Positions 6,265-61,903 of a DNA stretch of 64,000 bases are shown here, piece by piece (position 1 is the first letter of the stretch; the number at the start of each line of letters is the position of its first letter). Source of the DNA: Escherichia phage JLBYU22; sequence record OK272484.1; one strand, given 5' to 3'. The notes beneath the pieces are model-generated. The model saw only the letters and a program-made list of their open reading frames with translations. It searched no databases and had not been told where the DNA came from. The translations under genes and the position numbers were made by a program.

Positions 6265-6277
6265 AATATTTCCTCAG

Positions 6278-6285: not shown

Positions 6286-6314
6286 TAGATATATTTATTA
6301 CATGGTATTTAGAC

Positions 6315-16681: not shown

Positions 16682-16740
16682 TCATGTTATGTCAGTAAGA
16701 TTACTATAACACAACACGAGGGACTTGTAAACTACATTTT
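16682..16740 (-). promoter_or_regulatory. Early sigma70-type promoter cassette (GTTTAC -35, 17-nt spacer, TATAGT -10) plus leader
   Basis: Minus strand GTTTACaagtccctcgtgttgtgtTATAGT; 51-bp near-identical copy at 31839..31889. Confidence 0.55.
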
Positions 16741-18789
16741 GAACTTTTTAGACATTCCGTTAATGTTAACCAAAGAAGCTAAGATTTGAGAAACTTCGTT
16801 TTCCTCTTCTTTTGATTCTTCGACAAGGAATTGATTAAATCCAGTCATTGGACGAACTTCACCAGTTTCCATCAAATGGTCGCCATCATATACTGATTCC
16901 TCTAATTGTTCAGAAGGAGGAACGATTGTACCTTCGATTAGATACTTGTTATAAGCAGTTTCTTTCATAAAGTACGTACTTACTTTATTAATCTTCAGTA
17001 AAATTCCACGTGGTAGAATAACTTCAGCTTCTGATGGAAATCCTGATAAATGACCTGGAACGATAACTTTGATTCGCTCAGCTCCTTTAATTACCATACC
17101 CACGCTAGTTTCGGCATCTTCACTAGCATATGTAGAATGACTACCCATATGCATCAAATCTTCTGCATCAACGGAACCTTCTCCTTCACCAGAAAATACT
17201 GCGCCGGAATCATCTAAGGCCATATAGTTTTTACCATGCTCACCGAAGATATTTGGTTTAAGCGATGTGGATACGAAGTTCTTGAAATAGAACATTTTGT
17301 TTTCAATGTTATGACGCAAAGTTTTAAATGTAACTTCTTGTCCACGGTAAAGTGTAGTTCCTGGAGGAAGAACTGAACCTTTAGCGAATGCAGAATCAAG
17401 CGTCTCAATATGTTTAATAGCTCGTTCCATATATTCTTCGCGGGTAGAATCTGGTTTACCCAAAAGGAACGAGTTCATTTCAACATATGAATCTGCACAA
17501 TAATCTTCAATTACATCAGATTCAGCTTGAGTTAATCCTTTTGGAGTTACTTCGGTGCTCGCGTATTCATATGCCTGAGCGGCAGATTCATTAATCAATT
17601 TATAAATGCCATTCATGACAAATTGAATAATAGCTGTCTTTTCATCTGGTGTAGCTTTAGAACCTTTAACTAAATCATTGATAATTTTCTTAATAACATC
17701 AAAGCTATTAGAAATATTAATGTCAGCAAGATCGCTTAAAATTTTATCAGTTTTATAATCAAAGAATTCTTTATTCTTTAAATATTCTTGAGAACCTTGA
17801 TATGTTATATCGCTCTGCAACTTGATAGATGGATCACGTAAACGCGCATGGGCTAATGCAATATGATTTCGGAAACTTTCTAGTTCATAATCATTAGATT
17901 TAAAACGAGAAGCACTTCTCATACCACCGATAGCTCCTTTGTTAAAGTTTGAACCAATCTGGATAACCCCGGAGTTCATTGGTCCTTCTGCTTTATATAC
18001 CGGAACTTTAGATTCAAACTCTTGATATTTCTTAGCAGCGAAGCTATCACCCTGAAGTGAAGCATCAACAGTAGAATATTGAGCTTGTGCTGCTAATCGA
18101 CGACTAATTTTAGTTTTCTGAATAACAGCTTGATCCGTGCGCTTATCATTTTCTAAGGCAATAGAAGCAGCAACAGCAACAGCTTTAGGAACAGCATTAC
18201 CTGTTTTAACGTCTACATAAACATCACCAACCTTTGATTCAACTTTTGTGAATAACTCAGTTGAAATAGGAGGTACACCTGGAATGTCTTCTAAATTGGC
18301 ATTTTTACGGTAAACCATAATATATGCATACTTTTTATCGTAATCCCAGATTTCCTTTAAAAGAGCATATCGACCTGCTCCTTTAGTACGTACTAAACGG
18401 TCAGCAATAACTTGCATTTGACGAGCTGCGCCATTTGTTTTACTCTTTAGTACGCGGAATAAGCATGCATCAATTTTATACTGTTTCATTGTTTGAAGAG
18501 CAGTATCAAAAACCGCATTAATGACACCAATTGGATTTCCACCCAAGTTTTTAAGTTTAACGAGCGATAGTTTCTCATTGACACCTATCATTACGATATG
18601 CATCATTTTATCGCCTGGCTTAACGTTTTTATTTGTATCACCGCCAGAGGTGTATGTACAAAATCTAAATCCAGGAAGCACACTTTCTTCGCCGGCTTGA
18701 ATAGCAAAAATTTGCGGTATTTTATGCTTAGGATTTAAGTTAACAACCGGCGCCGAAGCGCCGTCAAATAATTCTGTAATAAGTTCCAT
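16732..18789 (-). CDS. alt: Alt-like mono-ADP-ribosyltransferase, paralogue A (685 aa)
   Basis: N-terminus MELITELFD; ART R-S-E motifs YRGQ / FVSTSL / SEAEVILPRG. Confidence 0.85.
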   Translation of the reverse strand: MELITELFDGASAPVVNLNPKHKIPQIFAIQAGEESVLPGFRFCTYTSGGDTNKNVKPGDKMMHIVMIGVNEKLSLVKLKNLGGNPIGVINAVFDTALQTMKQYKIDACLFRVLKSKTNGAARQMQVIADRLVRTKGAGRYALLKEIWDYDKKYAYIMVYRKNANLEDIPGVPPISTELFTKVESKVGDVYVDVKTGNAVPKAVAVAASIALENDKRTDQAVIQKTKISRRLAAQAQYSTVDASLQGDSFAAKKYQEFESKVPVYKAEGPMNSGVIQIGSNFNKGAIGGMRSASRFKSNDYELESFRNHIALAHARLRDPSIKLQSDITYQGSQEYLKNKEFFDYKTDKILSDLADINISNSFDVIKKIINDLVKGSKATPDEKTAIIQFVMNGIYKLINESAAQAYEYASTEVTPKGLTQAESDVIEDYCADSYVEMNSFLLGKPDSTREEYMERAIKHIETLDSAFAKGSVLPPGTTLYRGQEVTFKTLRHNIENKMFYFKNFVSTSLKPNIFGEHGKNYMALDDSGAVFSGEGEGSVDAEDLMHMGSHSTYASEDAETSVGMVIKGAERIKVIVPGHLSGFPSEAEVILPRGILLKINKVSTYFMKETAYNKYLIEGTIVPPSEQLEESVYDGDHLMETGEVRPMTGFNQFLVEESKEEENEVSQILASLVNINGMSKKFKM

Positions 18790-18792
18790 GAT

Positions 18793-20889
18793 TTATCCTT
18801 GAACGAACTTGTAAGGCATGTTTGTAATATCTATGCAAGACGCAATAATTCCAAGAGATGATTCTACTTTTTGTTTAACATTTGATGAAACAAATGATGC
18901 AAAGTCAACTCTGTCTTCTATTTCAATATCACCTGTCATTGCAACTACTTCGCCGGTTTCCATTAAATGGTCTCCATCATAGATTACCGATTCGGTGAGC
19001 TCTTCCGTGGTCATAACTTCAGCTTGAATGAGTTTTGTATTATTAGACGTGGTTCCGTCATTATTAGAAGCATCAGTTATTTTATTAACTTTGACCATCA
19101 ATCCGCGCGGTAGAATAACTTCAGCTTCTGTTGCTATTCCGAGACTTCCTGGATATACAACATTAACTTTATGAGCTCCATCAATTGCCCATCCTATTTG
19201 AACTTTAACGTATTCAGGATTTTCTTTATACGCTCTTATTTCGTTTGGATTAATAGTTATTCCTTCTTCATTTTTATCAACTGTCAATTCATTACGAGCT
19301 TCTGGTTCTAAAAGACCAATACCAGCATGTGTAATTCCAAAACGTCCAAAAATGATAGGAGTTAAAGAAGTAGATACAAAATTTCTGAAATAGAACACTT
19401 TATTTTTAACTAGTGCTTCGTATATAGGAGCAGTCATACTTTGAGCACGATAAACTGTGATGCCTTCCGGTATGCGGTCACCATTTTCAAAAGCTGAATC
19501 TAAGTTATTTATAGCAGATTCAATTTCTTTTTCACTCATTACATCATATCGTTCTGGATTGTAACGACCTAAAAGAAGATTATTGATGTCAGTATATCCT
19601 GAACCGCAATATTCTCTAATGCCACGCTTTTGTGATGGAGTATATTTAGAACCATCGCGGGCAATAGTAATATCAATCATTGGACCAGCACCAATTCCAG
19701 AAAAACTGTAAATCATTCGTTTGAGGAATTTAGTTTTTGCTGCGTTCCAGGAATTTTTAGTTATTTCTTCCCAGACTTCATCTGGTTGTCCTTTACGATT
19801 TTTATTATGATTAGCAAGCCATTTATCTTTATAATCTTCAAAGAATTGATTTACAGCTGCTGCGTATTTCTCTAAACATTTTATTGAAGTAGTTGGTTCA
19901 TTTTTAATCGCATTAAGAATTACATCTTTAATTTTTTCAGAAACTTCATTAACCTCACTTTTTGAAAAGAATTTATAGTCATAATGAAGTTCATCTGCAG
20001 TTCCTTCGGCAATGATTTTTGCTGCTTTAGTTTTAGAAGCTAATGAATTAATTCCAAGCTTCATTTCTTCTGCTTCGGGAATTAAAGGAGCCGTAGCAGG
20101 TTTATTGAAATTAGCTGCGGTAGATTCATACTTTTGGAATAATTCACTTTCAAATCTAGAAGATTCTAATGATTGACTTTGTGCAATTGCTCTACGGGAA
20201 ATTTTAACTTTAACGATTACAGCTTGGTCAGAACGTTTATCGTTTTCTTGCGCAATAGATGCAGCAATTGCCTCATTTTTAGTTACTTGAGCTCCAGTAT
20301 CTTTATTGATATAAACATCACCGACCTTTGATTCAACTTTAGTAAAGAGCTCGGTACTAATTTCCGGAACTCCTGGAATGTCTTCTAGTGATACATTTTT
20401 GCGATGTATAAGAATATATGCATACTTTTTATCGTAATCCCAGAGTTCCTTAAGAAGGACGTATCTACCACCTGAACGACTACGGATAAGTCTATCAGCA
20501 ATAACTTGAATTTGTCGAGCTTGACCAGCGGTTTTAGACTTAAGAATACGGAGCATACAGGCATCAATTTTATACTGACGCATAGTTTGCATTGCAACAG
20601 TAAAAACTGAATTGATATAATTAATTGGGCTTGGACCAAGACCTTTTAATTTAGCAATTGAACCTTTAGCAGTTAATGTAAAAGGAACAATATGCATCAT
20701 TTTATCGCCCATCTTTAAATCGCGATTAGTATCACCTCCAGATGTATAGGTGCATAAACGAAAGCCTGGCTGTTCAATTGCATCATCAACGTGAACTGAA
20801 AAAATTTGCGGTATTTTCTTCTTTGGATTTAAGTTTGTAATCGGAAGAGTAGTATCTTCGTCAAATAATTCTGTAATAAGTTCCATCAT
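18793..20889 (-). CDS. alt: Alt-like mono-ADP-ribosyltransferase, paralogue B (698 aa)
   Basis: N-terminal 250 aa closely similar to paralogue A; motifs YRAQ / FVSTSL / TEAEVILPRG; late promoter upstream. Confidence 0.85.
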   Translation of the reverse strand: MMELITELFDEDTTLPITNLNPKKKIPQIFSVHVDDAIEQPGFRLCTYTSGGDTNRDLKMGDKMMHIVPFTLTAKGSIAKLKGLGPSPINYINSVFTVAMQTMRQYKIDACMLRILKSKTAGQARQIQVIADRLIRSRSGGRYVLLKELWDYDKKYAYILIHRKNVSLEDIPGVPEISTELFTKVESKVGDVYINKDTGAQVTKNEAIAASIAQENDKRSDQAVIVKVKISRRAIAQSQSLESSRFESELFQKYESTAANFNKPATAPLIPEAEEMKLGINSLASKTKAAKIIAEGTADELHYDYKFFSKSEVNEVSEKIKDVILNAIKNEPTTSIKCLEKYAAAVNQFFEDYKDKWLANHNKNRKGQPDEVWEEITKNSWNAAKTKFLKRMIYSFSGIGAGPMIDITIARDGSKYTPSQKRGIREYCGSGYTDINNLLLGRYNPERYDVMSEKEIESAINNLDSAFENGDRIPEGITVYRAQSMTAPIYEALVKNKVFYFRNFVSTSLTPIIFGRFGITHAGIGLLEPEARNELTVDKNEEGITINPNEIRAYKENPEYVKVQIGWAIDGAHKVNVVYPGSLGIATEAEVILPRGLMVKVNKITDASNNDGTTSNNTKLIQAEVMTTEELTESVIYDGDHLMETGEVVAMTGDIEIEDRVDFASFVSSNVKQKVESSLGIIASCIDITNMPYKFVQG

Positions 20890-29254: not shown

Positions 29255-30457
<1,203 letters not shown>

Positions 30458-30461
<4 letters not shown>

Positions 30462-31838: not shown

Positions 31839-33480
<1,642 letters not shown>

Positions 33481-33488
33481 AATAAAAT

Positions 33489-33502
33489 GGGCCTTGCGGC
33501 CC
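33489..33502 (-). other. GC hairpin between nrdB stop and denA start (possible terminator or attenuator)
   Basis: GGGCC-TTGC-GGCCC stem-loop, T-rich after stem on minus strand, 9 nt upstream of denA ATG. Confidence 0.4.
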
Positions 33503-33507
33503 ACTCC

Positions 33508-34686
33508 TTAAAAATATTTTTTAAAACTCATCATAACTTTATCATCAACATCATTATCAATCTGTGCTACAAGGTAAGATGACAGTTCTACTTCTTGCGG
33601 TGCAGATTGAACATTATCAGAATTAAGATATTCACGAATCCAAGGATATGGATGTTTAACCGGAGCATCGGTAATTGGGCATGGAAGACCGCACTGTTTC
33701 ATACGAGATACAGTTAAGTAATCAATAAAGCTCCACATGCTATTTGTATTTAATCCAGGAACATCGCCATCTTTAAATAAATGAACTGCCCAATCTTTTT
33801 CTTGGCGGTTAACTTCCATGAAAATATCAACTGCTTCTTGTTCACACTCTTGAGCAATTTTAACCCATTGATCGCCATCAGTACCAGATTGAAGTTGACG
33901 AATAATATATTGGGTGCCTTTAAGGTGAAGCTGTTCATCGCGTGCAATGAACTTCATAATCTTGGCATTACCTTCCATGATTTCCATGTTCTTATGGAAG
34001 TTAAAGGTACATGCGAAAGATACATAAAAACGAATAGCTTCCAATGCGTTGATTACATGCAAACAGAGGTAAAGAGATTTCATTAGCTCACGCTTCCAAT
34101 ATGTCTCATGCTCAATAGCATCTTCAATAACGTCTTCGTCTGCATTAATTTCTTTTTGGTATTCGATATCAGCTTTAGCGTTTTCCCAATAACGAGTTTT
34201 AATCAGAACATCATCATAATAACGTCCAATGGATTCAGCACGTTTCATAATAGCTTCATCTAATACAATTTCATCAAATACCTTCGATGGATCAGTATAA
34301 AGATTTCGCATGATATGAGTATATGAACGACTGTGAATAGTTTCACTAAAAGTCCATGTAGCAACCCATGTATCAAGGCTTGGGTCTGAAATTAATGACA
34401 TAAGTACAGCAGATGGCGCGCGACCCTGAATGCTATCTAAAAGTGATTGATACTTCAAGTTGTTAGTAAAAATATTTTGCTGATACTGAGGAAGCTTATT
34501 AAACTGTGCAGCATCCATCATCAAGTTTACTTCTTCAGGACGCCAGAAAAATGACAACTGCTTTTCGGTTAAATCTTCAAAAACTTTATGACGTTGAATA
34601 TCATAACGCGCAATACCAAGACCTGAACCAAAAAACATAGGTTCTTTTAAAACATCAACTGGATTTGTATTAAAAACTGTGCTCAT
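33508..34686 (-). CDS. nrdB: Ribonucleotide reductase small subunit NrdB (uninterrupted)
   Basis: 392-aa continuous ORF; no intron. Confidence 0.92.
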   Translation of the reverse strand: MSTVFNTNPVDVLKEPMFFGSGLGIARYDIQRHKVFEDLTEKQLSFFWRPEEVNLMMDAAQFNKLPQYQQNIFTNNLKYQSLLDSIQGRAPSAVLMSLISDPSLDTWVATWTFSETIHSRSYTHIMRNLYTDPSKVFDEIVLDEAIMKRAESIGRYYDDVLIKTRYWENAKADIEYQKEINADEDVIEDAIEHETYWKRELMKSLYLCLHVINALEAIRFYVSFACTFNFHKNMEIMEGNAKIMKFIARDEQLHLKGTQYIIRQLQSGTDGDQWVKIAQECEQEAVDIFMEVNRQEKDWAVHLFKDGDVPGLNTNSMWSFIDYLTVSRMKQCGLPCPITDAPVKHPYPWIREYLNSDNVQSAPQEVELSSYLVAQIDNDVDDKVMMSFKKYF

Positions 34687-34737
34687 AAATTTTCCACTTA
34701 GTTAATAGATAGTGACTCGTCCATGAGTCAAATTATA

Positions 34738-37002
34738 TCATAATTTACAGGATGAACAATCTTCAGCTTTTGGAGTTTCTATTTCATAATCATCAGTACC
34801 AGAACCATCACGGGTATTATGATAATAGAAATTTTTTCCGCCAAAATACCAAAAATACAAAAGGTCATCAATCATTATTGACATTGGAACCTTTCCTTTT
34901 GGAAAAATCTGTGGGTCATAATATGTATTCGCCGAAGCTGATTGACAAACCCATTTCAGCATAATAGCTACCTGCGTAAGATAAGGTTTATTACCTTTCT
35001 TAGCTAATTTCCATGTATAATCATAGAGGTCTATGTTATGCTCAATATTGGGCACGACTTGATTAAAGGAGCCCTCTTTTGATTCTTTAACAGAGACTGG
35101 TCCACGTGGAGGCTCGATACCGTTTGTACTGTTAGAAACTTGGGAAGATGACTCACATGGCATAAGTGCTGATAATGTGCTATTACGGATGCCAAAGAGC
35201 TTAAGGTCTTCCCGCAGCGACGACCAGTCACAAACGTATTTTGGAGCTGCGATTTGGTCAATCTTTTTATTGTACCAGTCGATAGGTAATTCGCCTCGAG
35301 ACCAACGAGTGTCTGAATAATATTCGCAAGGTCCTTTTTCTTTGGCGAGCTTAATGGATGCTTTAATGAGTCCATACTGTAATCTCTCAAATAGTTCATG
35401 TGTTAAATCGTTAGCATCTTCATAAGAAGCAAAGTTACTTGCCAGCCAAGCTGCATAGTTAGTAACACCTACACCGAGGTTACGACGCTTTTTAGCTTTT
35501 TCTGCTTCAGGAACTGGATATCCTTGGTAATCCAAAAGATTATCAAGAGCACGAACTTGGACTTCTGCCAATTCATTAATTTTATCTTGGTCTTGCCAGT
35601 CAAAATTATCCAGTACGAATGCAGAGAGAGTACACAATCCAATTTCAGCATCAGGACTATTCACATCATTTGTTGGAATAGCAATTTCACAGCACAAGTT
35701 ACTCTGACGAATAGGTGCCTTTTCACGAATAAACGGAGTATAGTTATTCGTATTATCAATGAACTGCACATAAATCCTTGCTGTTCCTGAACGTTCAGTC
35801 ATGAGCAATTCAAATAGTTCACGGGCTTTAATACGCTTTTTACGAATATTAGGGTCTTTTTCTGCAGCTTCATACAATTCACGGAAACGGTCTTGGTCTT
35901 TAAAATAAGAATAATAAAGCTCGCCGCCCATTTCATGCGGACTGAACAAAGTAATGTAATCGTTCTTTCCGAATCGTTCCATCATCAAATCATTCAGCTG
36001 AACACCATAATCCATGTGACGAATGCGGTTTTCTTCTACGCCTTTGTTATTTTTCAAAACGAGAAGATTTTCAACTTCCAAATGCCAAATAGGATAATAA
36101 GCAGTAGCAGCGCCGCCACGAATTCCACCCTGTGAACATGATTTAACTGCAGTCTGAAAATGTTTCCAAAAAGGAATAACACCAGTATGACGTACTTCAC
36201 CCATGCCAATCTTAGAACCTTCGGCACGAATCATACCAACGTTAATACCAATTCCAGCGCGTTTAGAGATATATTCAACAATTGAAGCGGAAGCCTTATT
36301 GATAGACTTTAATGAATCACCTGCCTCAATAACAACGCATGAACTAAACTGTCGAGTCGGAGTACGACAACCAGCCATAATAGGAGTTGGCAATGAAATC
36401 TGTCGAGTAGATACTGCTTCATAAAAACGGATAACATGTTTTAATCTATCAACAGGTTCATCTTGATGCAGTGCCATTCCAATAGTCATAAATGCAAACT
36501 GCGGAGTTTCATAAATTTGACCGGTGGTTTTATCTTTGACTAGATATTTTTCTTTTAATTGCATCGCTCCGGAATAAGTAAATTCCATATCCCGCTCGTG
36601 CTTAATTTTTGATTCTAAAAATGTAATTTCTTCCGCAGAATATTTTGACAATAATTCAGAGTCATATTTCCCTTCATTTACGCAATAAGAAATATGGTCA
36701 ATAAATGAACGCGGTTCATACTGCCCGTAAACATGCTTACGAAGAGCAAACATTAAACAGCGTGCAGCTACATATTGATAATCAGGCTCTTCAACCGAAA
36801 TAGAATTCGCAGCAGCCTTAATGACAATAGTCTGAATATCATCAGTTGTCATTCCATCACGGAGATAAGATTTAATATTTTCATATAATTCATAAGGATC
36901 TACTGATGTTCCTTCAGCTGCCCAAGATAAAACTTTAATAATTTTTTGTGGGTCGAAGCTCTGAGAAACACCACTACTTTTGATAACATTAATTAATTGC
37001 AT
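34738..37002 (-). CDS. nrdA: Ribonucleotide reductase large subunit NrdA
   Basis: 754 aa, same as T4 NrdA. Confidence 0.95.
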   Translation of the reverse strand: MQLINVIKSSGVSQSFDPQKIIKVLSWAAEGTSVDPYELYENIKSYLRDGMTTDDIQTIVIKAAANSISVEEPDYQYVAARCLMFALRKHVYGQYEPRSFIDHISYCVNEGKYDSELLSKYSAEEITFLESKIKHERDMEFTYSGAMQLKEKYLVKDKTTGQIYETPQFAFMTIGMALHQDEPVDRLKHVIRFYEAVSTRQISLPTPIMAGCRTPTRQFSSCVVIEAGDSLKSINKASASIVEYISKRAGIGINVGMIRAEGSKIGMGEVRHTGVIPFWKHFQTAVKSCSQGGIRGGAATAYYPIWHLEVENLLVLKNNKGVEENRIRHMDYGVQLNDLMMERFGKNDYITLFSPHEMGGELYYSYFKDQDRFRELYEAAEKDPNIRKKRIKARELFELLMTERSGTARIYVQFIDNTNNYTPFIREKAPIRQSNLCCEIAIPTNDVNSPDAEIGLCTLSAFVLDNFDWQDQDKINELAEVQVRALDNLLDYQGYPVPEAEKAKKRRNLGVGVTNYAAWLASNFASYEDANDLTHELFERLQYGLIKASIKLAKEKGPCEYYSDTRWSRGELPIDWYNKKIDQIAAPKYVCDWSSLREDLKLFGIRNSTLSALMPCESSSQVSNSTNGIEPPRGPVSVKESKEGSFNQVVPNIEHNIDLYDYTWKLAKKGNKPYLTQVAIMLKWVCQSASANTYYDPQIFPKGKVPMSIMIDDLLYFWYFGGKNFYYHNTRDGSGTDDYEIETPKAEDCSSCKL

Positions 37003-37319
37003 AAGTCCTCAACTTGAAAATCGTCTTTAAACAATCGGTTAACTATATGAGCTATTATATCACCATGACACGGCTTTGGTTTACATGTGCATCCTAGCCT
37101 CATTCCACGTAAAGGCTCTAAATGTGCTTTAGTTATTTCTCCGGATTTAATTCGACGTATAAAATCTTTTTTGAATAATTCAATGGCAGCCTCCCGGCTG
37201 CCAGCATCTTTACCGACGTAATTTCCCCAAAATGTACCACGGTGAATATTAACATCAAAGTCGGATTTGTATTTATTCACTACCCGGCATAGACGGCCCG
37301 CGCTGGAATAATTCGTCAT
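36993..37319 (-). CDS. Hypothetical Cys/His-motif protein (position of T4 nrdA.1)
   Basis: 108 aa; motif [13 protein letters not shown] near C-terminus. Confidence 0.55.
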
Positions 37320-37536
37320 ATTGTTTTTCCGTTAATACAGTAATATCATAGTAACAGTCAGAAGAAGTTTTAACTGTGGAAATTTTATTATCAAAATACT
37401 CACGAGTCATTTTATGAGTATAGTATTTTTTACCATAAATGGTAATAGGCTGTTCTGGTCCTGGAACTTCTAACTCGCTTGGGTTAGGAAGTGTAAAAAG
37501 AACAACGCCAGAAGTATCTTTAAATCGTAAAATCAT
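37273..37536 (-). CDS. Hypothetical protein (position of T4 nrdA.2)
   Basis: 87-aa ORF coupled to td. Confidence 0.5.
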
Positions 37537-38393
37537 ATTGCCATTTTCCCTTTAATTGCTGGATGCGATTCATAATTTTCAAGGATAAAATCTTTCGGTT
37601 TCATGTATTCAGTTAACCAGTAAAGCTGTGTTTCGGTGTCACAATTTCCAAACTCTATAGGCCAATCAATTTTAAGTTCACATAGTTCTTTAGGCTCACG
37701 ACGTAAAATTTCTTTACATTGCTCAGTATGATTCATATAGATGTGAGTATTACCACCAGAAAATATCAAATCTCCTGGGATAAGATTACACATCTTAGCC
37801 ACAATATGCGTCAAGGCAGCGTACGAGGCAATGTTGAATGGCAATCCCAAGAAAACATCTACACTTCTTTGGTACCATTGTAAATCAAGATAACCATTAC
37901 GCACATTAAACTGATAGAACATATGACAGGGCGGTAATGCCATTTGATTGATTTCAGCTGGATTCCATGCTGAAACGATTTGACGTCGATCAGTTGGTAA
38001 TTTTTTAATACGATCAATAGTTTCAACTAATTGATCCACACCACCGAAATCACGCCATTGTTTACCGTATATAGGACCAAGTTCACCACTATGATATCCT
38101 AGGTCTTTAGCCTGGTTTTCATAGTTATCGTCCCAAATAGTTTTACCTTGAATAAGACTGCCATGAGTGCGAAGACGTAAATCATTAACATTGGTAGAAC
38201 CGGAAATAAACCATAGAAGCTCAGCAATGCATGCATTCCAGGCGAGCTTTTTAGTTGTTACTGCAGGAAAACCTTTGGTTAAATCCCAACGCAATTTAGT
38301 ACCGAACAAAGCAATTGTTCCTGTGCCTGTTCGGTCATCGGTTTCATAACCATTTTCAAAAATGTCTTTAATTAAATCTTGGTATTGTTTCAT
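37533..38393 (-). CDS. td: Thymidylate synthase (uninterrupted)
   Basis: 286 aa continuous; active-site PPCHMFYQF; no group I intron. Confidence 0.95.
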
Positions 38394-38437
38394 TTAGTAC
38401 CTTATATAAATTATAATACATTTTATGAAGCTAATAA

Positions 38438-38797
38438 TTAATACGGTTTAGCATCAAATTTTCTCTCAATTTCAGGCGTGAAATATAATTCTTTACCGCG
38501 TTTGGAAAAACGACCAATAATATGATAATTATTCTCATCAAACGTGATATTGCCGATATCCATAGCTTTCAACCAAATATCGATATTTCTGTCAAGCTTT
38601 ATATCAAAATTCCAATACGGAGAACTATTACCAAAAATACTGCAAGCGGATTCAGTGAAACAACTGCTATAAATTTTGTCTTTAGGAACTATTAATTGAT
38701 AGACGCCTTTAATAAACTGAGGACCTTGCCATTTTGGTTGTTTCGCGTCTTTTTCTAATAGAATAGGGTAATAATTAAAATTCATATTTTCCGCCAC
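38438..38797 (-). CDS. Hypothetical protein in an insertion between frd and td
   Basis: 119-aa ORF; frd and td overlap in T4. Confidence 0.6.
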   Translation of the reverse strand: MAENMNFNYYPILLEKDAKQPKWQGPQFIKGVYQLIVPKDKIYSSCFTESACSIFGNSSPYWNFDIKLDRNIDIWLKAMDIGNITFDENNYHIIGRFSKRGKELYFTPEIERKFDAKPY

Positions 38798-38805
38798 GTA
38801 TTATT

Positions 38806-39632
<827 letters not shown>

Positions 39633-39643
39633 ATTATCTCCTA

Positions 39644-39976
39644 TTAAAAAGGATCAGGAATATATCCGCTAGCTTTAATCATTTTAATTAACGTTAGCAT
39701 TCCTTTATTAACCGCTAGTGAGATTTCATCAAAAACTTCATCACTAAAAAGTTCTAACACACCCTTCTGAACTTTTAATTTACAGCCAACAATTTCGTCA
39801 TCGCCTATAGTAAATTCATTACCACCAATTCCTCCGAAAAACTTAATTACACCAGTTAACTGTCTTCCACGAGAATATGGGTCGTGTGATAAAGTAATAT
39901 GAGTCACCCCGGGTACAGTTTTAAATTGGCAGCGAATATTTACTTGAGCAATTCCAGTTACATGAATGTCAGACAT
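39644..39976 (-). CDS. Hypothetical protein (position of frd.2)
   Basis: 110-aa ORF. Confidence 0.55.
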   Translation of the reverse strand: MSDIHVTGIAQVNIRCQFKTVPGVTHITLSHDPYSRGRQLTGVIKFFGGIGGNEFTIGDDEIVGCKLKVQKGVLELFSDEVFDEISLAVNKGMLTLIKMIKASGYIPDPF

Positions 39977-39986
39977 AATATTTTCC

Positions 39987-40229
39987 TCAAACAGACTTTT
40001 TCACAATTTTCCAATCAGCTTTAAACTGCTCGACGTCAGAATGGTAAATCCAAAATCCTGCGCTTTCTCCGTCTTCATAAAGAGGACATCCATCGCATTC
40101 ATCTTCCCATCCCATATCACGTAAAAGATGTTCAGCTTTTTCAACAAGTTCAGAATCTTTACCGATGATATTAAAATACCATTTACCTCTAACTTCCGAA
40201 TCTTTGATGCTCTGACGTTGTAATCTCAT
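39987..40229 (-). CDS. Hypothetical protein (position of frd.3)
   Basis: 80-aa ORF with early promoter upstream. Confidence 0.5.
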   Translation of the reverse strand: MRLQRQSIKDSEVRGKWYFNIIGKDSELVEKAEHLLRDMGWEDECDGCPLYEDGESAGFWIYHSDVEQFKADWKIVKKSV

Positions 40230-40240
40230 TTTATTCTCCT

Positions 40241-40300
40241 CAGTAGTTGATAGGGTAATAGTATCACACTACTACCCTGATGTAAACTACTTTTTGAAAG
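40241..40300 (-). promoter_or_regulatory. Early promoter cassette (family 2): GTTTAC -35, 18-nt spacer, TACTAT-type -10, conserved leader ...CTATCAACTACTG
   Basis: Shares leader and -35 region with elements near 40965, 58105, 61411, 62140. Confidence 0.5.
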
Positions 40301-40652
40301 TTTTTCGCAAAAGTTCAATGATTTCATCTACATTATTTTCGTCTACAATGCAGTGAATTTTTGTTACGCCAGAAACCTTGTCTTCGACTTCATCTTCTTC
40401 AGAAGTCGGTTCTTTATACTCACGAAAACAATGAAATTCGTCTTCACAAACGTTAAAGTAAAAATGCTTTCCATTTGCGCATTCAATGTGTTTTATTACT
40501 CTAAATCCATCAACAAAGAAAGCTTCTTTAACTTCAAACCATCCACCATTTTCTTGAATAATTTTAACTATTGATGAATTAGAACGCGGGCGATAATTAA
40601 TAAATGTATCAATAAGTCTTGGAACAAGCTCATACTTTTTGCCAATATACAT
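40287..40652 (-). CDS. Hypothetical protein in the variable slot between gene 32 and the frd block
   Basis: 121-aa ORF. Confidence 0.55.
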   Translation of the reverse strand: MYIGKKYELVPRLIDTFINYRPRSNSSIVKIIQENGGWFEVKEAFFVDGFRVIKHIECANGKHFYFNVCEDEFHCFREYKEPTSEEDEVEDKVSGVTKIHCIVDENNVDEIIELLRKTFKK

Positions 40653-40696
40653 TACATTTTCCTCATTTTAACGGGGCTGTAATAGCCCCTTGATAA

Positions 40697-40948
40697 TTAT
40701 TGTTCAATCAATCCCATGTAAAATTCTGTGTCTTCAGAATCCATGCCATCACAATATTCATTAGCCATAAAGCGGGTGAGGTCTTCAAGAGGACCTTCAA
40801 TGACAATAGAAAAATTGCAATAATTGGGATCATCGTGAATACTTGTGATACTAAGTTCAGGATAACGATTACGAATAATTTCTTCGATATATTCAAAATC
40901 AACGATGTCAATATCAACTTTAGCCATATTATTTTCCTCTTTAATCAT
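40697..40948 (-). CDS. Hypothetical acidic protein
   Basis: 83-aa ORF with AGAGG Shine-Dalgarno and own early promoter. Confidence 0.55.
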
Positions 40949-40964
40949 CAGCAGTATTGCCGAT

Positions 40965-41025
40965 AGTTGTATAGTACCATGGAAGAACAGGGATGTAAAC
41001 AGTTTTGTGAAAAAATTTTTGAAAT
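40965..41025 (-). promoter_or_regulatory. Early promoter cassette (family 2) with A/T-rich UP element
   Basis: Minus strand ttttttatttcaaaaattttttcacaaaactGTTTACA...TACTATacaactatc. Confidence 0.55.
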
Positions 41026-41031
41026 AAAAAA

Positions 41032-41050
41032 GGGGACCCTAGAGGTCCCC
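41032..41050 (-). terminator. Rho-independent terminator after gene 32
   Basis: GGGGACC-CTAGA-GGTCCCC hairpin followed by T7 tract on minus strand. Confidence 0.7.
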
Positions 41051-41072
41051 AATTAATTAGTAATATAATCTA

Positions 41073-41981
41073 TTAAAGGTCATTCAAAAGGTCATCCAGG
41101 TCCGTGTCATCAGCACTAGATGAACTGCCAGAGCTTGAGCTCATAAAATCATCTTCAGTTTTTGTATTGAAGTCATCAACATTGAATGCATCCAAATCAT
41201 CAGCAACTTTATCAGCTTTCTTAGCGGCAGTTGCTGCGGCACCGCCCATCACAGCAGTTCCCATAACTTGACCGAATTTAGTGCTCAGTTCTTCAAATGA
41301 TTTGAATTTATCTTTAGAAGTCATTTCAGAAAGGTCAACCATTTGTTCGAACAGTTCTTTCTGGAAAGATTTATCGTCAATGTTTGGAATCGCAGATTGA
41401 TTCAGGAATTTAGATTCATCGTAGTTACTAAATCCAGAAACTTGTTTAACTTTCAGTACAAAGTTAGCACCTTCCCACGGACAAGTTACATCAACCGGAG
41501 TTTCACCCATTTCAACATCAACTGCAATCATCGCGTTGATTTTATCCCAGATTTTCTTACCGAAACGATATTTAAATACTTTACCTTCGTTTTCTGGAGC
41601 AGCTGGGTCTTTTACTACAAGAATGTTAGCCCAGTAAGAAGTTTTACGTTTAACAAGACTGTACTCTTTATTGTCAGTGTTGTACAGATCATTTTTACTG
41701 ATGTACTGACATACTGGGCAAGAATCGTAATCACCGTGGGTAGATGAACAGTTTTCAATATACCATTTACCATTTTTCTTGAAACCGTGATTTACAAGAA
41801 TTGCGAATGGTGCTTGTTCATCATTTTTAGACGGAAGAAAACGAATTACTGCTTGACCGTTACCCGCATTGTCGAGTTTCAGTTTCCACTCGCCTTTATC
41901 TTCAGAAGAAAAACCACCTTTATTTCCAGCCAGTTTAGCCATTTGTGCAGCGAGTTCAGCAGTAGATTTACGTTTAAACAT
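41073..41981 (-). CDS. 32: Single-stranded DNA-binding protein gp32
   Basis: 302 aa; acidic serine-rich C-terminus; Zn-binding Cys/His region. Confidence 0.95.
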
Positions 41982-42013
41982 TTTTATTTCCTTTTTAATT
42001 TAATTAACAGTTG

Positions 42014-42048
42014 GTGCTATGACGATGTATGACCTCATAGCTGGTCAG
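42014..42048 (-). promoter_or_regulatory. Gene 32 mRNA leader pseudoknot (translational autoregulation operator)
   Basis: Minus strand CTGACCAGCTATGAGGTCATACATCGTCATAGCAC, then A/U-rich leader before the ATG. Confidence 0.65.
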
Positions 42049-42064
42049 TGAGATAATTATAATC

Positions 42065-42072
42065 TATTTATA
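42065..42072 (-). promoter_or_regulatory. T4 late promoter (TATAAATA on minus strand) upstream of gene 32
   Basis: Exact reverse-complement TATAAATA. Confidence 0.5.
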
Positions 42073-42080
42073 ATAAGCAA

Positions 42081-42734
42081 TTAATACTTACAAGATTTCA
42101 CAGTTTCAATGAAAACACTTTTAGCTTTCTGTGAATCAATATTTAAAATTTTTCTATAAGCCTTTAACTTTATAGAATAATTATTCCAGACTAAATTATC
42201 AGTCTGTTCATCATGTTTATCAATTATATTTAAAAACGAATCAAGCAAGATAAACGTCTCAAACGAAATTATATTCGATTGAAGTAGTTTAAAAATATAA
42301 CTTGATTGAACTTTTGGATTATACTCAAAGATTTCTTTAAAAGCAGAAACTTCAACTTTTTTACTAAAATAATAAATGTTGCGAATATCTTCTTCAAACT
42401 TAAATTTAATTTGCTTTAAGCGTCCGATATATTCACGATAAAACACAAGTGCATCAGCGTCAGAGATGTCACCAATCCAAGCATCTTGGTTAGCAACCAA
42501 ATTGCTTATAAAGATTAAAGCAAGTTCCTTTAATTTATATTTTTCTGATAACTTCTGGAAAAAATACTTATCCCTTCGCTTTTGATAAGCGGCATCAGAC
42601 ACCCGCATGCACCAATTATACTTAATTACATCATACTTTCCATTCATATGTTGTTTTATCATTAAGTATAATTTATAAACTGATTTACCATCAATGTATC
42701 TTTCACCACCAGCAGGCATGCGGAGTTTAATCAT
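42081..42734 (-). CDS. 59: Helicase loader gp59
   Basis: 217 aa, same as T4 gp59. Confidence 0.9.
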   Translation of the reverse strand: MIKLRMPAGGERYIDGKSVYKLYLMIKQHMNGKYDVIKYNWCMRVSDAAYQKRRDKYFFQKLSEKYKLKELALIFISNLVANQDAWIGDISDADALVFYREYIGRLKQIKFKFEEDIRNIYYFSKKVEVSAFKEIFEYNPKVQSSYIFKLLQSNIISFETFILLDSFLNIIDKHDEQTDNLVWNNYSIKLKAYRKILNIDSQKAKSVFIETVKSCKY

Positions 42735-43069
42735 AGTAGAAAATCTAATGTATTAGTTTTTTCACAACGAACAACAGAAGGACGTAAAAGATTTTCGTCA
42801 ATAGCTTCTGACTGAATTTTTTCAATTATACCCGAAGGAATAAATTTAGCAAATTGAGTTTCAGGAATAGAATTTTCTTCTAAGAATGCTGTTGTAGCTT
42901 CAAGATAACTCATTCCAAACTCTTCTACCATTTTTTCAATAATAAATCCATTTTCTTGACGGTCAAGAAGCTTTGCAATTTCATCCTTTTCTTTCTTAAT
43001 TGAAAGTTCTTTTTCTGAAAGACCGGTCTCATCGACCGGACGAATATCATTTAGAGAAAACTGTGTCAT
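42731..43069 (-). CDS. 33: Late transcription accessory protein gp33
   Basis: 112 aa from ATG at 43067..43069 (MTQFSL...); track ORF starts at a non-ATG codon upstream. Confidence 0.85.
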   Translation of the reverse strand: MTQFSLNDIRPVDETGLSEKELSIKKEKDEIAKLLDRQENGFIIEKMVEEFGMSYLEATTAFLEENSIPETQFAKFIPSGIIEKIQSEAIDENLLRPSVVRCEKTNTLDFLL

Positions 43070-43324: not shown

Positions 43325-44242
43325 TCAAAATTCATTAATGCTATTAGTTAATTTAGAAAGACCCGCTTTTACAAAATATGAATAAATTTTGCCACGCGGT
43401 GGTAATTTATATGAATTATAGTAATTCACAATGTTTGAAGCAATATTATCAGGAATATAATCAAAATCAATTAGAACTAAATTTTCTTTATAACGATTAT
43501 ATTCAGATTCTGTGAGAAGCACCTTAGCTTGCTCGCGGTCATTAGCAATAGCTTCAACAATAGAGGTTTTCATTGAAGGAGTTCGTTCACCTTCAACTCT
43601 GGTAAACCAAAAGTCAGACCGTACTTTAACTGAAGCAACGTTATCCTTTTTGTCACCTTTAAGGATTTTAGTCATACAGTCAATTTCAGCAGAACCGCTT
43701 TTAATTTTAACCCATTTCTTGTGCATCGGTGACCATTGCTTAACATTTGGGTATTTGTGAAGTTGAGTAAAGTCACCATCAGATGAAATGATTAAAATCT
43801 TGTGTCCTTCTAAAGAGAACTTTTTAACAAGAACAGCAATATGGTCATCTGCTTCATACTTATCAATATCCATAACAATGTATGGCATATAAGCTTTCAA
43901 TTCATCTATAACTTTATGGCTGGATTCAAAATAACCTTCCCAGTCCCAAGTAGATTCTTCTCGTGCTTTTCCACGGTTTTTCTTATAATAATACGCGAAA
44001 TCACGACGCCAGTATCCAGATTTCGCGTTATCAATACACAGTACAATTTTAGTGTATCCAAGAGTTTTTGCTTTTTTGACATTAAACTTAATTGAGTTCA
44101 ATATCAAATGACGAACCATTGATAAATTAATTTTTTCTTTATCTGGGAAGTTTACCAAAGCAGTTGAAAGCGCAATTTGACTAAAGTCAATTAAGCAGAT
44201 TCCTTCTTTGTAATCTTCATCCAGCATCATTTCTAAATCCAT
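43325..44242 (-). CDS. rnh: RNase H / 5'-3' exonuclease
   Basis: 305 aa from MDLEMMLDED; track start at 44257 is a TTG. Confidence 0.9.
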   Translation of the reverse strand: MDLEMMLDEDYKEGICLIDFSQIALSTALVNFPDKEKINLSMVRHLILNSIKFNVKKAKTLGYTKIVLCIDNAKSGYWRRDFAYYYKKNRGKAREESTWDWEGYFESSHKVIDELKAYMPYIVMDIDKYEADDHIAVLVKKFSLEGHKILIISSDGDFTQLHKYPNVKQWSPMHKKWVKIKSGSAEIDCMTKILKGDKKDNVASVKVRSDFWFTRVEGERTPSMKTSIVEAIANDREQAKVLLTESEYNRYKENLVLIDFDYIPDNIASNIVNYYNSYKLPPRGKIYSYFVKAGLSKLTNSINEF

Positions 44243-50076: not shown

Positions 50077-53000
50077 ATGGCTACTTTAAAACAAATACAA
50101 TTTAAAAGAAGCAAAACCGCAGGTGCACGTCCTGCTGCTTCAGTATTAGCCGAAGGTGAATTGGCTATAAACTTAAAAGATAGAACAATTTTTACTAAAG
50201 ATGATTCAGGAAATATCATTGACTTAAGCATTTCCGCTGGCGGTAATATCAGTGGAAATATCACTCAAACTGGTGATTATACACAGACTGGAAAATTTAA
50301 TTTAATTGGCCCGCAGATTATAGCAAGTGGTGGATATATTGAGTTTAATTATCGTACTACTGGAAGTGGGGCTTGGTCCGGTCAACACACTGCAAAAGCT
50401 CCAATTTTTGTAGATTTAAGCTCAGCTACTTCCACATCTGAATATAATCCTATAATTAAACAGCGCTTTAAAGATGGAACTTTTTCATTAGGTACTTTAG
50501 TTTCTGAAGGTTCGTTAAAGATTCATTATATTGATGAAACTGGTCAATCTAAATATTGGACATTTGCGCGCTCAGGTAATTTTCAAGTTGATTCTGGTAA
50601 TTTATTAGTATCTGGTGGGTATTTAGTCGCTCAGAGTAATATTGAAACAAGAACAGGTTCTTTGATTGGTCCATCTGTTGTAACTAAAAATATTTCATTT
50701 GATACGAAAGCGTTTGGACAATACGATTCGCAGTCATTAGTTCAATATGTTTATCCTGGAACTGGTGAAACAAACGGAATTAATTACCTTCGTAAATTCC
50801 GTGCAAAATCCGGTGGTACGATTTATCATGAATTAGCTTCTGCACAAACCGGAAAAAGTGATGAACTGTCTTGGTGGACCGGTAATACAGCCGTTAATAA
50901 ACAAATGGGCCTTCGCAATGATGGGTCTTTAGTATTGCGACGCTCACTCGCAATTGGTACAATTACAACAGATGAAAACATTAATAATTACGGCTCCACT
51001 GGAGCAATGGGTGAATGCTATATAGTCATTGGAGATGCCGCAACTGGTATATCATATAAAAGATCTGGTGTATATGATTTAGTTGCTAATGGTCTTTCTA
51101 TCGCGTCTATTACTCCTGACAGTTTCCGTAGTACTCGTAAAGCATTATTTGGACGCTCAGAAGATCAAGGTACAACATGGATTATGCCTGGAACGAATGC
51201 TGCATTTTTATCAGTTCAAACACAGGCTGATGAAAACAGTGCTGGAGACGGTCAGACACATATTGGCTATAATTCAGGCGGAAAAATGAACCACTATTTC
51301 CGCGGTAAAGGCAAAACTAATATTAATACTCAAGAAGGCATGGAAGTTAACCCGGGTATTCTTAAAATAGTAACCGGTGCAAATAATGTAATGTTTTATG
51401 CTGATGGCGGTATTACATCCACTAAGCAGCTTTCAATATATAATGGTGTATATTTAGCAGCTAATAATTCTACTGCTGGGCTAACATTCGCTCCAACTAC
51501 TACAATTGATGGCACTAAGCAAATTTTGTGGGAAGGTGGTAAGCGCGCTGGACAGAATAAAAGCTATGTAACTGTTAAAGCGTGGGGTAATTCATTTAAC
51601 GCATCTGGCGATCGTAATCGTGAAACAGTTTTTGAAGTAGCTGACGGACAAGGTTATTATTTTTATTCCCAGCGTGTAGCCCCAAGCGGCTCAGAAACTA
51701 CTGGTCCTGTTGTAACTCAGTTTGCTGGAGCTGTTAATGCTAGAGGAAGTATTATTACTGACGGAAGTTTTAAAGTTAATGGATTGAGCACTTTAGTCGG
51801 TAATGTTACCATGTCTAATGGTTTGTTTGTCCAAGGTGGTTCTTCTATTACTGGACAAGTTAAAATCGGCGGAACTGCAGATGCATTAAGAATTTGGAAT
51901 GCTGAATATGGTGCAATTTTCCGTCGTTCTGAAGATAAGCTTTATATTATTCCAACCCCGCAGAATGCTGGTGAATCAGGTGGTATTTCTAATTTACGTC
52001 CGTTCTATATTACATTAAGTACTGGTAAAGTTTCCATGGATCATGATGTAGATATCGGCGGCGGTAGATTTAAAGTAGAAGTGGCTGGAACTACGGCTGG
52101 TCAACGTATTATAGTTAATGCAGCGAGCGATGCTATTAGAATAAATGCTCCAACACAAGAGTCTTCTAACTTCATTCAAGGACGTAAGGCTGATGTGAAT
52201 AAATGGTATTTGGGTATTGGCGATGGCGGCAACGTCGTTCGTATGCACAGCTACACATATTCACATGGTATTGCATTAAATTCTGATTCTGTCGATATTA
52301 CTAAGCCTCTTAAAGTCGGAAACGCCCAACTAGGAACTGACGGTAATATTACCAATGGTTCAGGAAACTTTGCCAACTTAAATACCACGTTAAATCGTAA
52401 AGTTAATTCTGGATTTATTACTTATGGAGCAACCTCTGGATGGTATAAGTTTGCAACAGTAACAATGCCACAATCCACTTCGACAGTCTTCTTTAAAATA
52501 GTTGGAGGTTCTGGATTTAATAGCGGATTATTCACACAATGTAATATTGCTGAAATTGTTTTACGTACTAGTAATGAAAGACCTGCTGACTTAAATGCTG
52601 CATTATACACAAGAACAATTGGAGCTGCATTTAAAGATATTGCAGTTAATAACGTCTCTGGAGATACATATGACATTTATGTTTCTGCTGGAACATATTG
52701 TAATCAATTGGCTTGTGAGTGGTCATGTACCGAAAATGCTACTGTTAGTGTTATTGGTATTAACTCATCTACACAATCGCCTGTAGATGCTCTTCCAGAC
52801 ACAGCAGTTAACGGTCAAGTTGCTAATGTTCTTAATAACTTGGTTGATCGCGGTAAAGTTAAGCGTTATGAAGCCGATTCTGAAATAGCTATTAATAGCC
52901 AAACCGGTATTCGTATCAGAAGCAACAGCGATAAAACTGGTTCTGTTGCTACAATGCTACGAAATGATGGCGGTAGTTTTTATATTCTGTTTACAGATAA

Positions 53001-53838
53001 AAATGCCACCGATGGCGCAGCAACTGTTAATGGCGATTGGAATAGTAAACGTCCTTTCGCAATTAACTTAACAACCGGCAAAGTGATGATGAATAATGGC
53101 ATAGCTGTTCGCAGCGCTGCTTTATTCTATAATAGCATAAACGTCAAAGATAATGGTTCTATTAACTTTGATAAATCAGGCGCTAACCCGAGAAATATGA
53201 GAATATTTCATGCTGGCGATGCTTCTCGCGGTAACCGTATTGAAATTGCCGATGAAACTAACTATATTGCTTACTTTGAAAAAACACCAGGTGGAGCTAA
53301 TCGCTTTGTAGTAAATAATGCTACTGTAGCTGGTGTTAATCAAATGAATTCATTTGGTATTAACATCAATAACGCACTTGGTGGAAATAGTATAGCGTTT
53401 GGCGATAATGACACTGGTATTAAGCAAAATGGCGATGGATTATTAGACATATATGCGAATGGTGTACAGACTTTCCGTTTCCAAAACGGTGATTTGTACT
53501 CATACAAAAATATAAATGCTCCAAACGTTTATACTCGTTCTGATATTCGTTTAAAATCTAACTTCAAACCTATCGAAAATGCACTTGATAAAGTTGAAAA
53601 ACTTAACGGTGTCATTTACGATAAAGCTGAATATATCGGTGGAGAGGCAATTGAAACTGAAGCGGGTATTGTAGCTCAAACGTTACAAGACGTTTTACCA
53701 GAAGCCGTCCGTGAAACAGAAGACAGCAAGGGTAATAAAATACTCACTGTTTCTTCTCAAGCCCAGATTGCTCTTCTGGTTGAAGCTGTGAAAACGCTTT
53801 CTTCTCGTGTAAAAGAACTTGAATCTAAACTTATGTAA
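50077..53838 (+). CDS. 37: Long tail fibre distal subunit gp37 (T2/T6-type, 1253 aa)
   Basis: N-terminus conserved with T4 gp37; longer than T4 (1026 aa); C-terminal segment resembles an intramolecular chaperone-like domain. Confidence 0.9.
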   Translation: MATLKQIQFKRSKTAGARPAASVLAEGELAINLKDRTIFTKDDSGNIIDLSISAGGNISGNITQTGDYTQTGKFNLIGPQIIASGGYIEFNYRTTGSGAWSGQHTAKAPIFVDLSSATSTSEYNPIIKQRFKDGTFSLGTLVSEGSLKIHYIDETGQSKYWTFARSGNFQVDSGNLLVSGGYLVAQSNIETRTGSLIGPSVVTKNISFDTKAFGQYDSQSLVQYVYPGTGETNGINYLRKFRAKSGGTIYHELASAQTGKSDELSWWTGNTAVNKQMGLRNDGSLVLRRSLAIGTITTDENINNYGSTGAMGECYIVIGDAATGISYKRSGVYDLVANGLSIASITPDSFRSTRKALFGRSEDQGTTWIMPGTNAAFLSVQTQADENSAGDGQTHIGYNSGGKMNHYFRGKGKTNINTQEGMEVNPGILKIVTGANNVMFYADGGITSTKQLSIYNGVYLAANNSTAGLTFAPTTTIDGTKQILWEGGKRAGQNKSYVTVKAWGNSFNASGDRNRETVFEVADGQGYYFYSQRVAPSGSETTGPVVTQFAGAVNARGSIITDGSFKVNGLSTLVGNVTMSNGLFVQGGSSITGQVKIGGTADALRIWNAEYGAIFRRSEDKLYIIPTPQNAGESGGISNLRPFYITLSTGKVSMDHDVDIGGGRFKVEVAGTTAGQRIIVNAASDAIRINAPTQESSNFIQGRKADVNKWYLGIGDGGNVVRMHSYTYSHGIALNSDSVDITKPLKVGNAQLGTDGNITNGSGNFANLNTTLNRKVNSGFITYGATSGWYKFATVTMPQSTSTVFFKIVGGSGFNSGLFTQCNIAEIVLRTSNERPADLNAALYTRTIGAAFKDIAVNNVSGDTYDIYVSAGTYCNQLACEWSCTENATVSVIGINSSTQSPVDALPDTAVNGQVANVLNNLVDRGKVKRYEADSEIAINSQTGIRIRSNSDKTGSVATMLRNDGGSFYILFTDKNATDGAATVNGDWNSKRPFAINLTTGKVMMNNGIAVRSAALFYNSINVKDNGSINFDKSGANPRNMRIFHAGDASRGNRIEIADETNYIAYFEKTPGGANRFVVNNATVAGVNQMNSFGININNALGGNSIAFGDNDTGIKQNGDGLLDIYANGVQTFRFQNGDLYSYKNINAPNVYTRSDIRLKSNFKPIENALDKVEKLNGVIYDKAEYIGGEAIETEAGIVAQTLQDVLPEAVRETEDSKGNKILTVSSQAQIALLVEAVKTLSSRVKELESKLM

Positions 53839-61897: not shown

Positions 61898-61903
61898 TTT
61901 TAC

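Follow-up and report, generated by a model that had tools for sequence, protein, structure and literature searches.

The DNA analysed here, hereafter the window, is a 64,000-nucleotide stretch of Escherichia phage JLBYU22 (OK272484.1). It is a Tequatrovirus segment, whose collinear counterpart in T4 (NC_000866) spans positions 105,335-168,903, with 90-97% identity across most genes (blastn). The genes considered below lie in the order frd-td.1-td-nrdA.2-nrdA.1-nrdA-nrdB-denA and 59-32, separated by short spacers, which is the T2/RB14-type organisation of Tequatrovirus (Table 1). Both td and nrdB are uninterrupted: the open reading frames (ORFs) are continuous, both match their families (td over its full length), and the spliced T4 genes align with the window ORFs across each junction.

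Table 1. Genes, spacers and candidate homing sites of the window, with positions numbered from its first nucleotide.
Feature	Position	Strand	Remarks
gp23-gp24 spacer	1177-1259	+	T4 segD missing; gap at window 1187/1248
inh-uvsW spacer	6265-6314	+	T4 segE missing; gap at window 6301/6321
Window-only ORF	30159-30461		
denA (endonuclease II)	33070-33504	-	GIY-YIG, 27.2 bits, cut-off 22.6 (Pfam); phrog_1111
nrdB	33508-34686	-	Single continuous ORF, intron-less, 392 aa; Ribonuc_red_sm (Pfam); phrog_86
Empty nrdB intron insertion site and I-TevIII homing-site sequence	33991-34040	-	Insertion at 34011/34010 (nrdB nt 676/677)
MobE target region (nrdB nt 91-164)	34523-34596	-	Identical to T2H; ~20 differences from T4
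nrdA-nrdB spacer	34687-34737	-	51 nt, in place of T4 nrdB.1 and mobE (~700 nt); identical to T2H and T2
nrdA	34738-37002	-	754 aa
nrdA.1	36993-37319	-	Small conserved ORF, collinear with T4 and RB18; no NCBIfam match
nrdA.2	37273-37536	-	Small conserved ORF, collinear with T4 and RB18; no NCBIfam match
td	37533-38393	-	Single continuous ORF, intron-less, 286 aa; full-length Thymidylat_synt match, E 7e-96 (Pfam)
Empty td intron insertion site and equivalent of the I-TevI homing site	37833-37871	-	Insertion at 37845/37844 (td nt 549/550)
td.1	38438-38797	-	119 aa, between frd and td; phrog_1928 (unknown function); missing from T4; window-only ORF
Window-only ORF	39387-39632		
Window-only ORF	39644-39976		
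gene 32 (ssDNA-binding protein)	41073-41981	-	302 aa, as in T2
59-32 spacer	41982-42080	-	99 nt, in place of T4 segG (~620 nt); 100% identical to T2
gene 59 (helicase loader)	42081-42734	-	217 aa
Window-only ORF	61634-61897		
Window-only ORF	61904-62122		

Clean blastn gaps against T4 fall exactly where each T4 element sits. Six T4 elements are cleanly missing from the window: the td intron with I-TevI (1017 nt, a gap at window 37841/37846), the nrdB intron with its defective I-TevIII (598 nt, a gap at 34010/34013), nrdB.1 together with mobE (T4 139720-140419), segG (T4 147919-148541), segD and segE; the T4 intervals holding nrdB.1-mobE and segG have no counterpart in the window. T4 also differs in lacking td.1 and in the length of NrdB (388 aa vs. 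392 aa in the window).

Neither intron-like RNA nor an endonuclease ORF was found in these intervals. Scans for a group I intron core (Rfam RF00028, Intron_gpI) returned nothing up to E = 1 in 33000-43000 and nothing up to E = 0.05 window-wide, while the same threshold recovered both T4 introns (E 9e-8 and 2e-6). These E-value scans replace a scan at the Rfam gathering threshold, which left the window empty and was discarded as evidence because it misses the known td and nrdB introns of T4 as well. Fifteen T4 homing endonucleases compared with the window by tblastn gave nothing below E 0.019, with denA as the positive control (E 6e-97). With local HMMs of the T4 Seg and Mob proteins, no match fell below E 0.5; these models are too insensitive to find even denA, and are of use solely for close relatives. 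The argument for the absence of endonucleases rests instead on the seven window ORFs that have no T4 homologue, among which no nuclease domain was found (six of the seven scanned with Pfam and PHROGs, all seven with NCBIfam). DenA, identical in amino acid sequence to T4 DenA (100%), is the sole GIY-YIG protein found within the window, and is a conserved enzyme of host-DNA degradation, not a homing endonuclease.

The absence of introns from td and nrdB, and of homing endonuclease genes from the window, is confirmed by these results. A preliminary description had presented td and nrdB as continuous ORFs that T4 interrupts with introns carrying I-TevI and I-TevIII, and denA as the only GIY-YIG-type protein, all of which the alignments and domain matches bear out. 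It also had nrdA directly abutting nrdB with no mobE-like ORF, and gene 32 directly abutting gene 59 with no seg-like ORF; both statements hold, with ‘directly’ to be read as an interval of 51 nt in the first case and of 99 nt in the second. The core of its interpretation, a T4-like gene content without the mobile elements that T4 has in this region, is supported by the collinearity with T4, by the clean gaps and by the same layout in T2.

That layout recurs closely in known phages. T2H (AY262132) and T2 (LC348380) have the gene order of the window, td.1 included, with no mobE and no segG, and they likewise lack introns in td (861 nt) and nrdB (1179 nt, 392 aa). The 51-nt and 99-nt spacers are identical in sequence to those of T2 and T2H. 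The former contains a short hairpin (34730-34713) that is not followed by a T-run, and the latter a late-promoter-like box, TATAAATA; a scan of consensus promoters and terminators performed no better than on shuffled sequence and carries no weight here. By sequence, however, T2 stands further from the window (~93-97% identity overall) than do Shigella phage ESh33, RB18 and RB14, the nearest relatives over window 33000-39000 (~98%). The annotated gene set of these three phages is that of the window: td and nrdB are continuous, and endonuclease genes are absent; they differ from it in this region by scattered point differences only, and in nothing structural. The ‘T2/T6-like’ affiliation first proposed for the window is thus apt for T2 with respect to layout and spacers, although ESh33, RB18 and RB14 are closer by sequence, and for td it is wrong with respect to T6, because T6 carries a td intron with I-TevI (the intron states of T2 and T6 are those of database sequence records).

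An uninterrupted td was found in ~450 records of a phage collection, vs. ~197 with the full td intron; 118 records have the nrdB intron, 142 have segG and 20 have a T4-type mobE locus. Being intron-free is the majority condition, and no mark of a special lineage: since T4 itself is the exception, an uninterrupted, endonuclease-free state is usual among its relatives, and the intron-free layout of the window is ordinary and previously described.

We consider it very probable that the window carries an nrd-td-32 region of the RB14/RB18/T2 type in which the targets of the T4 homing elements are unoccupied, making this phage an expected recipient of those elements. Clean absence alone fits both a region that was never invaded and one that was invaded and precisely vacated. 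Under the latter account, an ancestor possessed some of the elements and lost them precisely, in a cycle of invasion, decay and loss. The clean junctions would fit such loss by recombination with an element-free relative, and td is a local hot spot of divergence (~84% identical to T4, with flanks at 94-97%), suggesting past exchange at this gene. We nonetheless regard secondary loss as unlikely: there are no remnants, whether intron core, endonuclease fragments or T4-type conversion patches near the sites, the spacers are those native to T2, with promoter-like signals of their own, and the majority of relatives are element-free.

The td allele of the window is of the RB14/RB18 type (99.2% identity to RB14 td), with ungapped nucleotide identities of ~77% to T4 td and ~77% to the td of T2H, which represents another allele. 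It has the features of a vacant I-TevI site: td is uninterrupted, the FLG/LPF codons hold a junction of the form GG(N)/(Y)T(N), and a CNNNG motif precedes this junction by 23-27 nt. The cleavage motif reads CAAAG (37871-37867, positions -27 to -23) vs. CAACG in T4 and T2H; C1 and G5 are retained at -27 and -23 with the correct spacing. From -27 to +12 there are 11 differences from T4, every one of them synonymous and one of them at the central base of the motif; six synonymous changes lie between -1 and +12. I-TevI needs the CNNNG motif (PMC5009752) but is documented as tolerant of sequence (PMC5009752; PMC2988022). A literature search found no account of I-TevI activity on CAAAG.

At the corresponding site in nrdB, few differences from T4 are seen between -40 and +25, the two nearest the insertion site, at -5 and -2, being synonymous, and the I-TevIII cleavage positions at -14/-16 (PMC1865063) are the same in the window as in T4. 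The MobE target region, identical to that of T2H, includes the equivalent (34565-34561) of the nicks mapped at nt 122-126 of T2 nrdB, an experimentally sensitive allele (PMC2790892). Around these nucleotides the window has the MobE-sensitive, T2-type sequence, and its nrdB therefore looks like a putative MobE target.

Two natural phages, AV121 (OR352951) and Pu-Krd-SF4 (PQ759884), carry the td intron inside a td allele of the window type, and it is on these mosaics that we base the view that the I-TevI site of the window looks like a putative usable homing target. Like the window, both have td.1 upstream; unlike it, they contain an intron of ~1016 nt in which a homing endonuclease is annotated, with T4-type tracts on either side of the intron. 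Exon 1 of AV121 is of the window type as far as ~nt 465, while Pu-Krd-SF4 is of this type in exon 1 to ~nt 295 and in nearly all of exon 2. Upstream of the insertion site, the conversion tracts start at a distance of ~50 to 250 nt. That these tracts differ between the two phages implies that the window-type allele was invaded on at least two separate occasions. The mosaics are a neat example of td-intron co-conversion tracts, of textbook mechanism, although ordinary recombination, and not cutting by I-TevI at this very site, could also have produced them.

These mosaics also bear on whether the synonymous changes spread over the I-TevI site have, through drift of the target to resistance, rendered the td allele immune to homing. 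The 11 differences from T4, which reach into the cleavage motif, would favour this idea, as would the poor quality of certain CNNNG triplets as I-TevI substrates (PMC5009752), and the distribution of the allele: ~100 database phages carry it at ≥95% identity, and in a spread sample all nine listed carriers match it in one uninterrupted piece. Resistance is nevertheless improbable, given that the critical C1 and G5 are kept at the right distance, that I-TevI tolerates sequence change, and that the intron resides in this very allele in AV121 and Pu-Krd-SF4; nor can resistance explain nrdB, whose MobE region has the sensitive T2 sequence. A broader proposition seems to us no better founded: either td of the RB14/RB18 type is partly refractory to I-TevI, through CAAAG and a recoded binding site, and its ~100 intron-free carriers would have escaped by a change of target site instead of never having been exposed, or td.1 or another window-only small ORF is an unrecognised selfish cassette in the niche that seg and mob genes occupy in T4. 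Most doubtful of all is that a window-only small ORF such as td.1 (RB32ORF229c in RB18, td.1 in T2H) represents an unrecognised family of homing endonucleases: td.1 lies immediately upstream of td, a position typical of free-standing endonucleases, is found in some T-even phages and missing in others, and belongs to a family of unknown function, but it has no meaningful match in Pfam, NCBIfam or the PDB sequences and no detected nuclease motif, is small, at 119 aa, by the standard of two-domain homing enzymes and, judged by sequence, is no recognisable endonuclease.

If, as we favour, the nrd-td-32 region is of the RB14/RB18/T2 type with unoccupied targets, td and nrdB would be expressed as ordinary uninterrupted genes, the short native spacers would serve nrdB and gene 32, and nothing mobile would be encoded in this region. 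From the sequence of its sites we infer that the window's own targets can be cleaved or nicked. When this phage shares a host cell with T4 or another relative that bears the elements, these sites would be cut or nicked and then repaired from the donor, with a gain of the elements plus flanking donor sequence. Since the empty sites look usable, this phage would be expected as the recipient in such an infection, and we predict that crosses with T4 would find it in that role, with marker exclusion.

Beyond correct annotation of the genome, these observations matter little. The window joins the element-poor majority of T-even phages, among which T4 has been described in reviews as an outlier (PMC2988022), and provides one more case of a documented pattern, in which it is T4 that is unusually rich in homing endonucleases.

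Alignment to T4 of td, nrdB, nrdA-nrdB and 32-59 finds every T4 element absent from these regions, in agreement with a preliminary description in which td and nrdB were continuous and intron-free and neither mobE nor a seg gene interrupted nrdA-nrdB or 59-32. When the T4 genes are spliced in silico, the td intron (1017 nt in the record used) falls after td nt 549, between the FLG and LPF codons, and the nrdB intron (598 nt) after nt 664 of T4 nrdB; aligned to the spliced genes, the window reads through both points (td, 37845/37844; nrdB, 34011/34010), and each gene is a single open reading frame (ORF). A 51-nt spacer occupies the place of nrdB.1 and mobE (~700 nt in T4), and the 59-32 spacer, 99 nt long, lacks segG (~620 nt in T4). 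Outside the interval first described (33508-38393), segD and segE are likewise cleanly missing. The nrdA-nrdB spacer contains a short hairpin, TGACTCATGGACGAGTCA, identical in T2H and lacking a subsequent T-run, which fits a published remark that this spacer has no terminator in mobE-free phages.

Features of the window discussed in the text
Feature	Coordinates	Strand	Description
Hoc	4156-5574	-	head decoration, 472 aa
alt paralogue	16732-18789	-	ADP-ribosyltransferase, 685 aa
alt paralogue	18793-20889	-	ADP-ribosyltransferase, 698 aa
ORF	30159-30461	-	no T4 homologue; RB32ORF217c-like
nrdB	33508-34686	-	single ORF, 392 aa
hairpin	34713-34730	-	nrdA-nrdB spacer
td	37533-38393	-	single ORF, 286 aa; Thymidylat_synt match end to end
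td.1	38438-38797	-	119 aa; between frd and td; phrog_1928, function unknown
ORF	39387-39632	-	no T4 homologue; 81 aa; between frd and frd.1
ORF	39644-39976	-	no T4 homologue; DUF7247 match; between frd and frd.1
gp37	50077-53838	+	1253 aa
ORF	53869-54654	+	no T4 homologue; glycine-rich, 261 aa
ORF	59981-60136	-	putatively extra small membrane ORF, 51 aa; phrog_2501; lies in ac-stp part of T4 map
ORFs	61634-61897, 61904-62122	-	no T4 homologue; between ndd.6 and denB

Rfam at gathering thresholds returned no match in the window; this setting is uninformative because it also misses the introns of T4. On the T4 sequence (L001), RF00028 scores 35.7 bits for the nrdB intron (38509-38749) and 40.3 bits for the td intron (43596-43826), below its gathering score of 50 bits, so that scans run at that level overlook both of these classic introns. 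Reporting by E-value provided a working positive control, both T4 introns being called as Intron_gpI (E = 9e-8 and 2e-6), and found no such intron-like structured RNA in 33000-43000 to E = 1, or across all 64 kb to E = 0.05.

Searched against the window by tblastn, all 15 T4 homing endonucleases gave chance-level matches only (best E = 0.019; denA control, E = 6e-97, 100% identity); Seg and Mob profile HMMs had no match there, and protein family scans limited the GIY-YIG match to denA. A systematic screen identified seven window ORFs without a T4 homologue, and none yielded a nuclease domain, either in NCBIfam (all seven) or in Pfam and PHROGs (the six other than 53869-54654, which belong to PHROG families of unknown function). 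Among them, td.1 had no match in Pfam, NCBIfam or PDB, and 53869-54654 none in NCBIfam. We consider an unrecognised endonuclease among the small ORFs improbable. Because the intron and endonuclease searches were both negative, the original observation, including the lack of homing endonuclease genes and denA as the only GIY-YIG-type protein, stands in full. On our mechanistic reading, the region encodes ordinary nucleotide-metabolism and replication genes, nothing more.

The proposed inspection of insertion sites was carried out by comparing the MobE, I-TevIII and I-TevI sites with T4 and T2H. MobE nicks on T2 nrdB map to nt 122-126 (PMC2790892); across nrdB nt 91-164 the window is identical to T2H, and T4 differs at ~20 positions. 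At the nrdB intron site the cut positions are as in T4, the nearest two differences (-5 and -2 from the insertion point) being synonymous. The td gene represents a third allele, with ~77% ungapped identity to T4 td and to T2H td; its I-TevI cleavage motif reads CAAAG in place of CAACG, retains the critical C1 and G5 (at -27 and -23; motif requirements in PMC5009752), and is accompanied by six synonymous changes from -1 to +12. td is also a local divergence hot spot (exon 1, ~84% to T4; neighbouring genes, 94-97%), and close relatives carry td alleles of at least three classes.

Two natural mosaics carry the td intron with I-TevI. In AV121 (OR352951; L007 3001-4877), exon 1 is window-type to ~nt 465, and T4-type sequence extends from ~nt 500 across exon 2; in Pu-Krd-SF4 (PQ759884; L008 2001-3877), nt 1-295 and almost the whole of exon 2 are window-type, the T4-type tract being limited to ~nt 300 to +4. 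These differing boundaries imply that the window-type allele gained the intron at least two separate times, and in both phages the tracts resemble those left by co-conversion in descriptions of homing. The mosaics give indirect evidence that the window-type CAAAG motif may be a usable I-TevI substrate; set beside them, acquired resistance of the target sites, to which the altered motif might point, seems unlikely.

We propose that the phage is a recipient not colonised by homing elements. Were it to infect a cell together with an element-bearing relative, its td, nrdB and gene 32 would be expected to be cut or nicked, and donor-templated repair with co-conversion would follow. The elements are missing and the sequence state of their target sites is as described; cleavage and inheritance at these sites we infer from the T2 and T4 experiments of the cited papers. 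Secondary loss, in which elements once present departed precisely, might also leave clean gaps, and we give it little credence.

Other differences from T4 lie elsewhere in the window. Hoc is longer than its T4 counterpart (376 aa), and the overlap of its blastn blocks on T4 110749-111053 points to one probable additional Ig-like repeat of ~96 aa. Two full-length alt paralogues lie in tandem, whereas T4 has a single alt gene and the fragments alt.-1, alt.-2 and alt.-3. The distal part of gp37 diverges from T4 and is followed by 53869-54654, which reads as a T2-type gp38 adhesin from its sequence and position rather than a family scan; together they look like a T2-type tail-fibre tip module, not a T4-type chaperone. 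Small accessory ORFs additional to T4 (30159-30461, 39387-39976, 59981-60136 and 61634-62122, all on the minus strand) are of unknown function.

The element-free state is common. In the phage collection, the full T4 td intron occurs in 197 records and the window td as one uninterrupted piece in about 450 (a valid count, since the search's joining rule reports a td gene with an intron as two places), so that roughly 70% of sequenced relatives are td-intron-free; the nrdB-intron-free share is larger (intron in 118 records, some outside Tequatrovirus). The T4-type nrdB.1-mobE locus was found in 20 records and segG in 142. The finding is already known, and the comparison of mobE-bearing and mobE-free phages by Wilson and Edgell (PMC2790892) took in RB14 and RB32. 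The earlier interpretation of a T4-like genome lacking the mobile elements of this region is supported; its 'T2/T6-like' lineage holds for T2 only, because T6 carries the td intron.

By blastn against the assembled T4 genome, the whole window forms a single collinear alignment (T4 105,335-168,903). Megablast of 33000-39000 matched more than 500 T-even genomes in the phage collection. Shigella phage ESh33, Escherichia phage 303Ecol101PP and RB18 come first, followed by RB14 and others, and these best matches reach ~98% along all 6 kb; they are annotated denA-nrdB-nrdA-...-td throughout, with denA the sole endonuclease. td.1 is common to the window, T2H, RB18, AV121 and Pu-Krd-SF4, whereas T4 lacks it, its frd and td overlapping. 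The annotation of RB18 agrees with the window in this region, and T2H (AY262132) and T2 (LC348380) share its layout exactly, including the small td.1 ORF, with a nrdA-nrdB spacer in T2H and a 59-32 spacer in T2 identical to those of the window.
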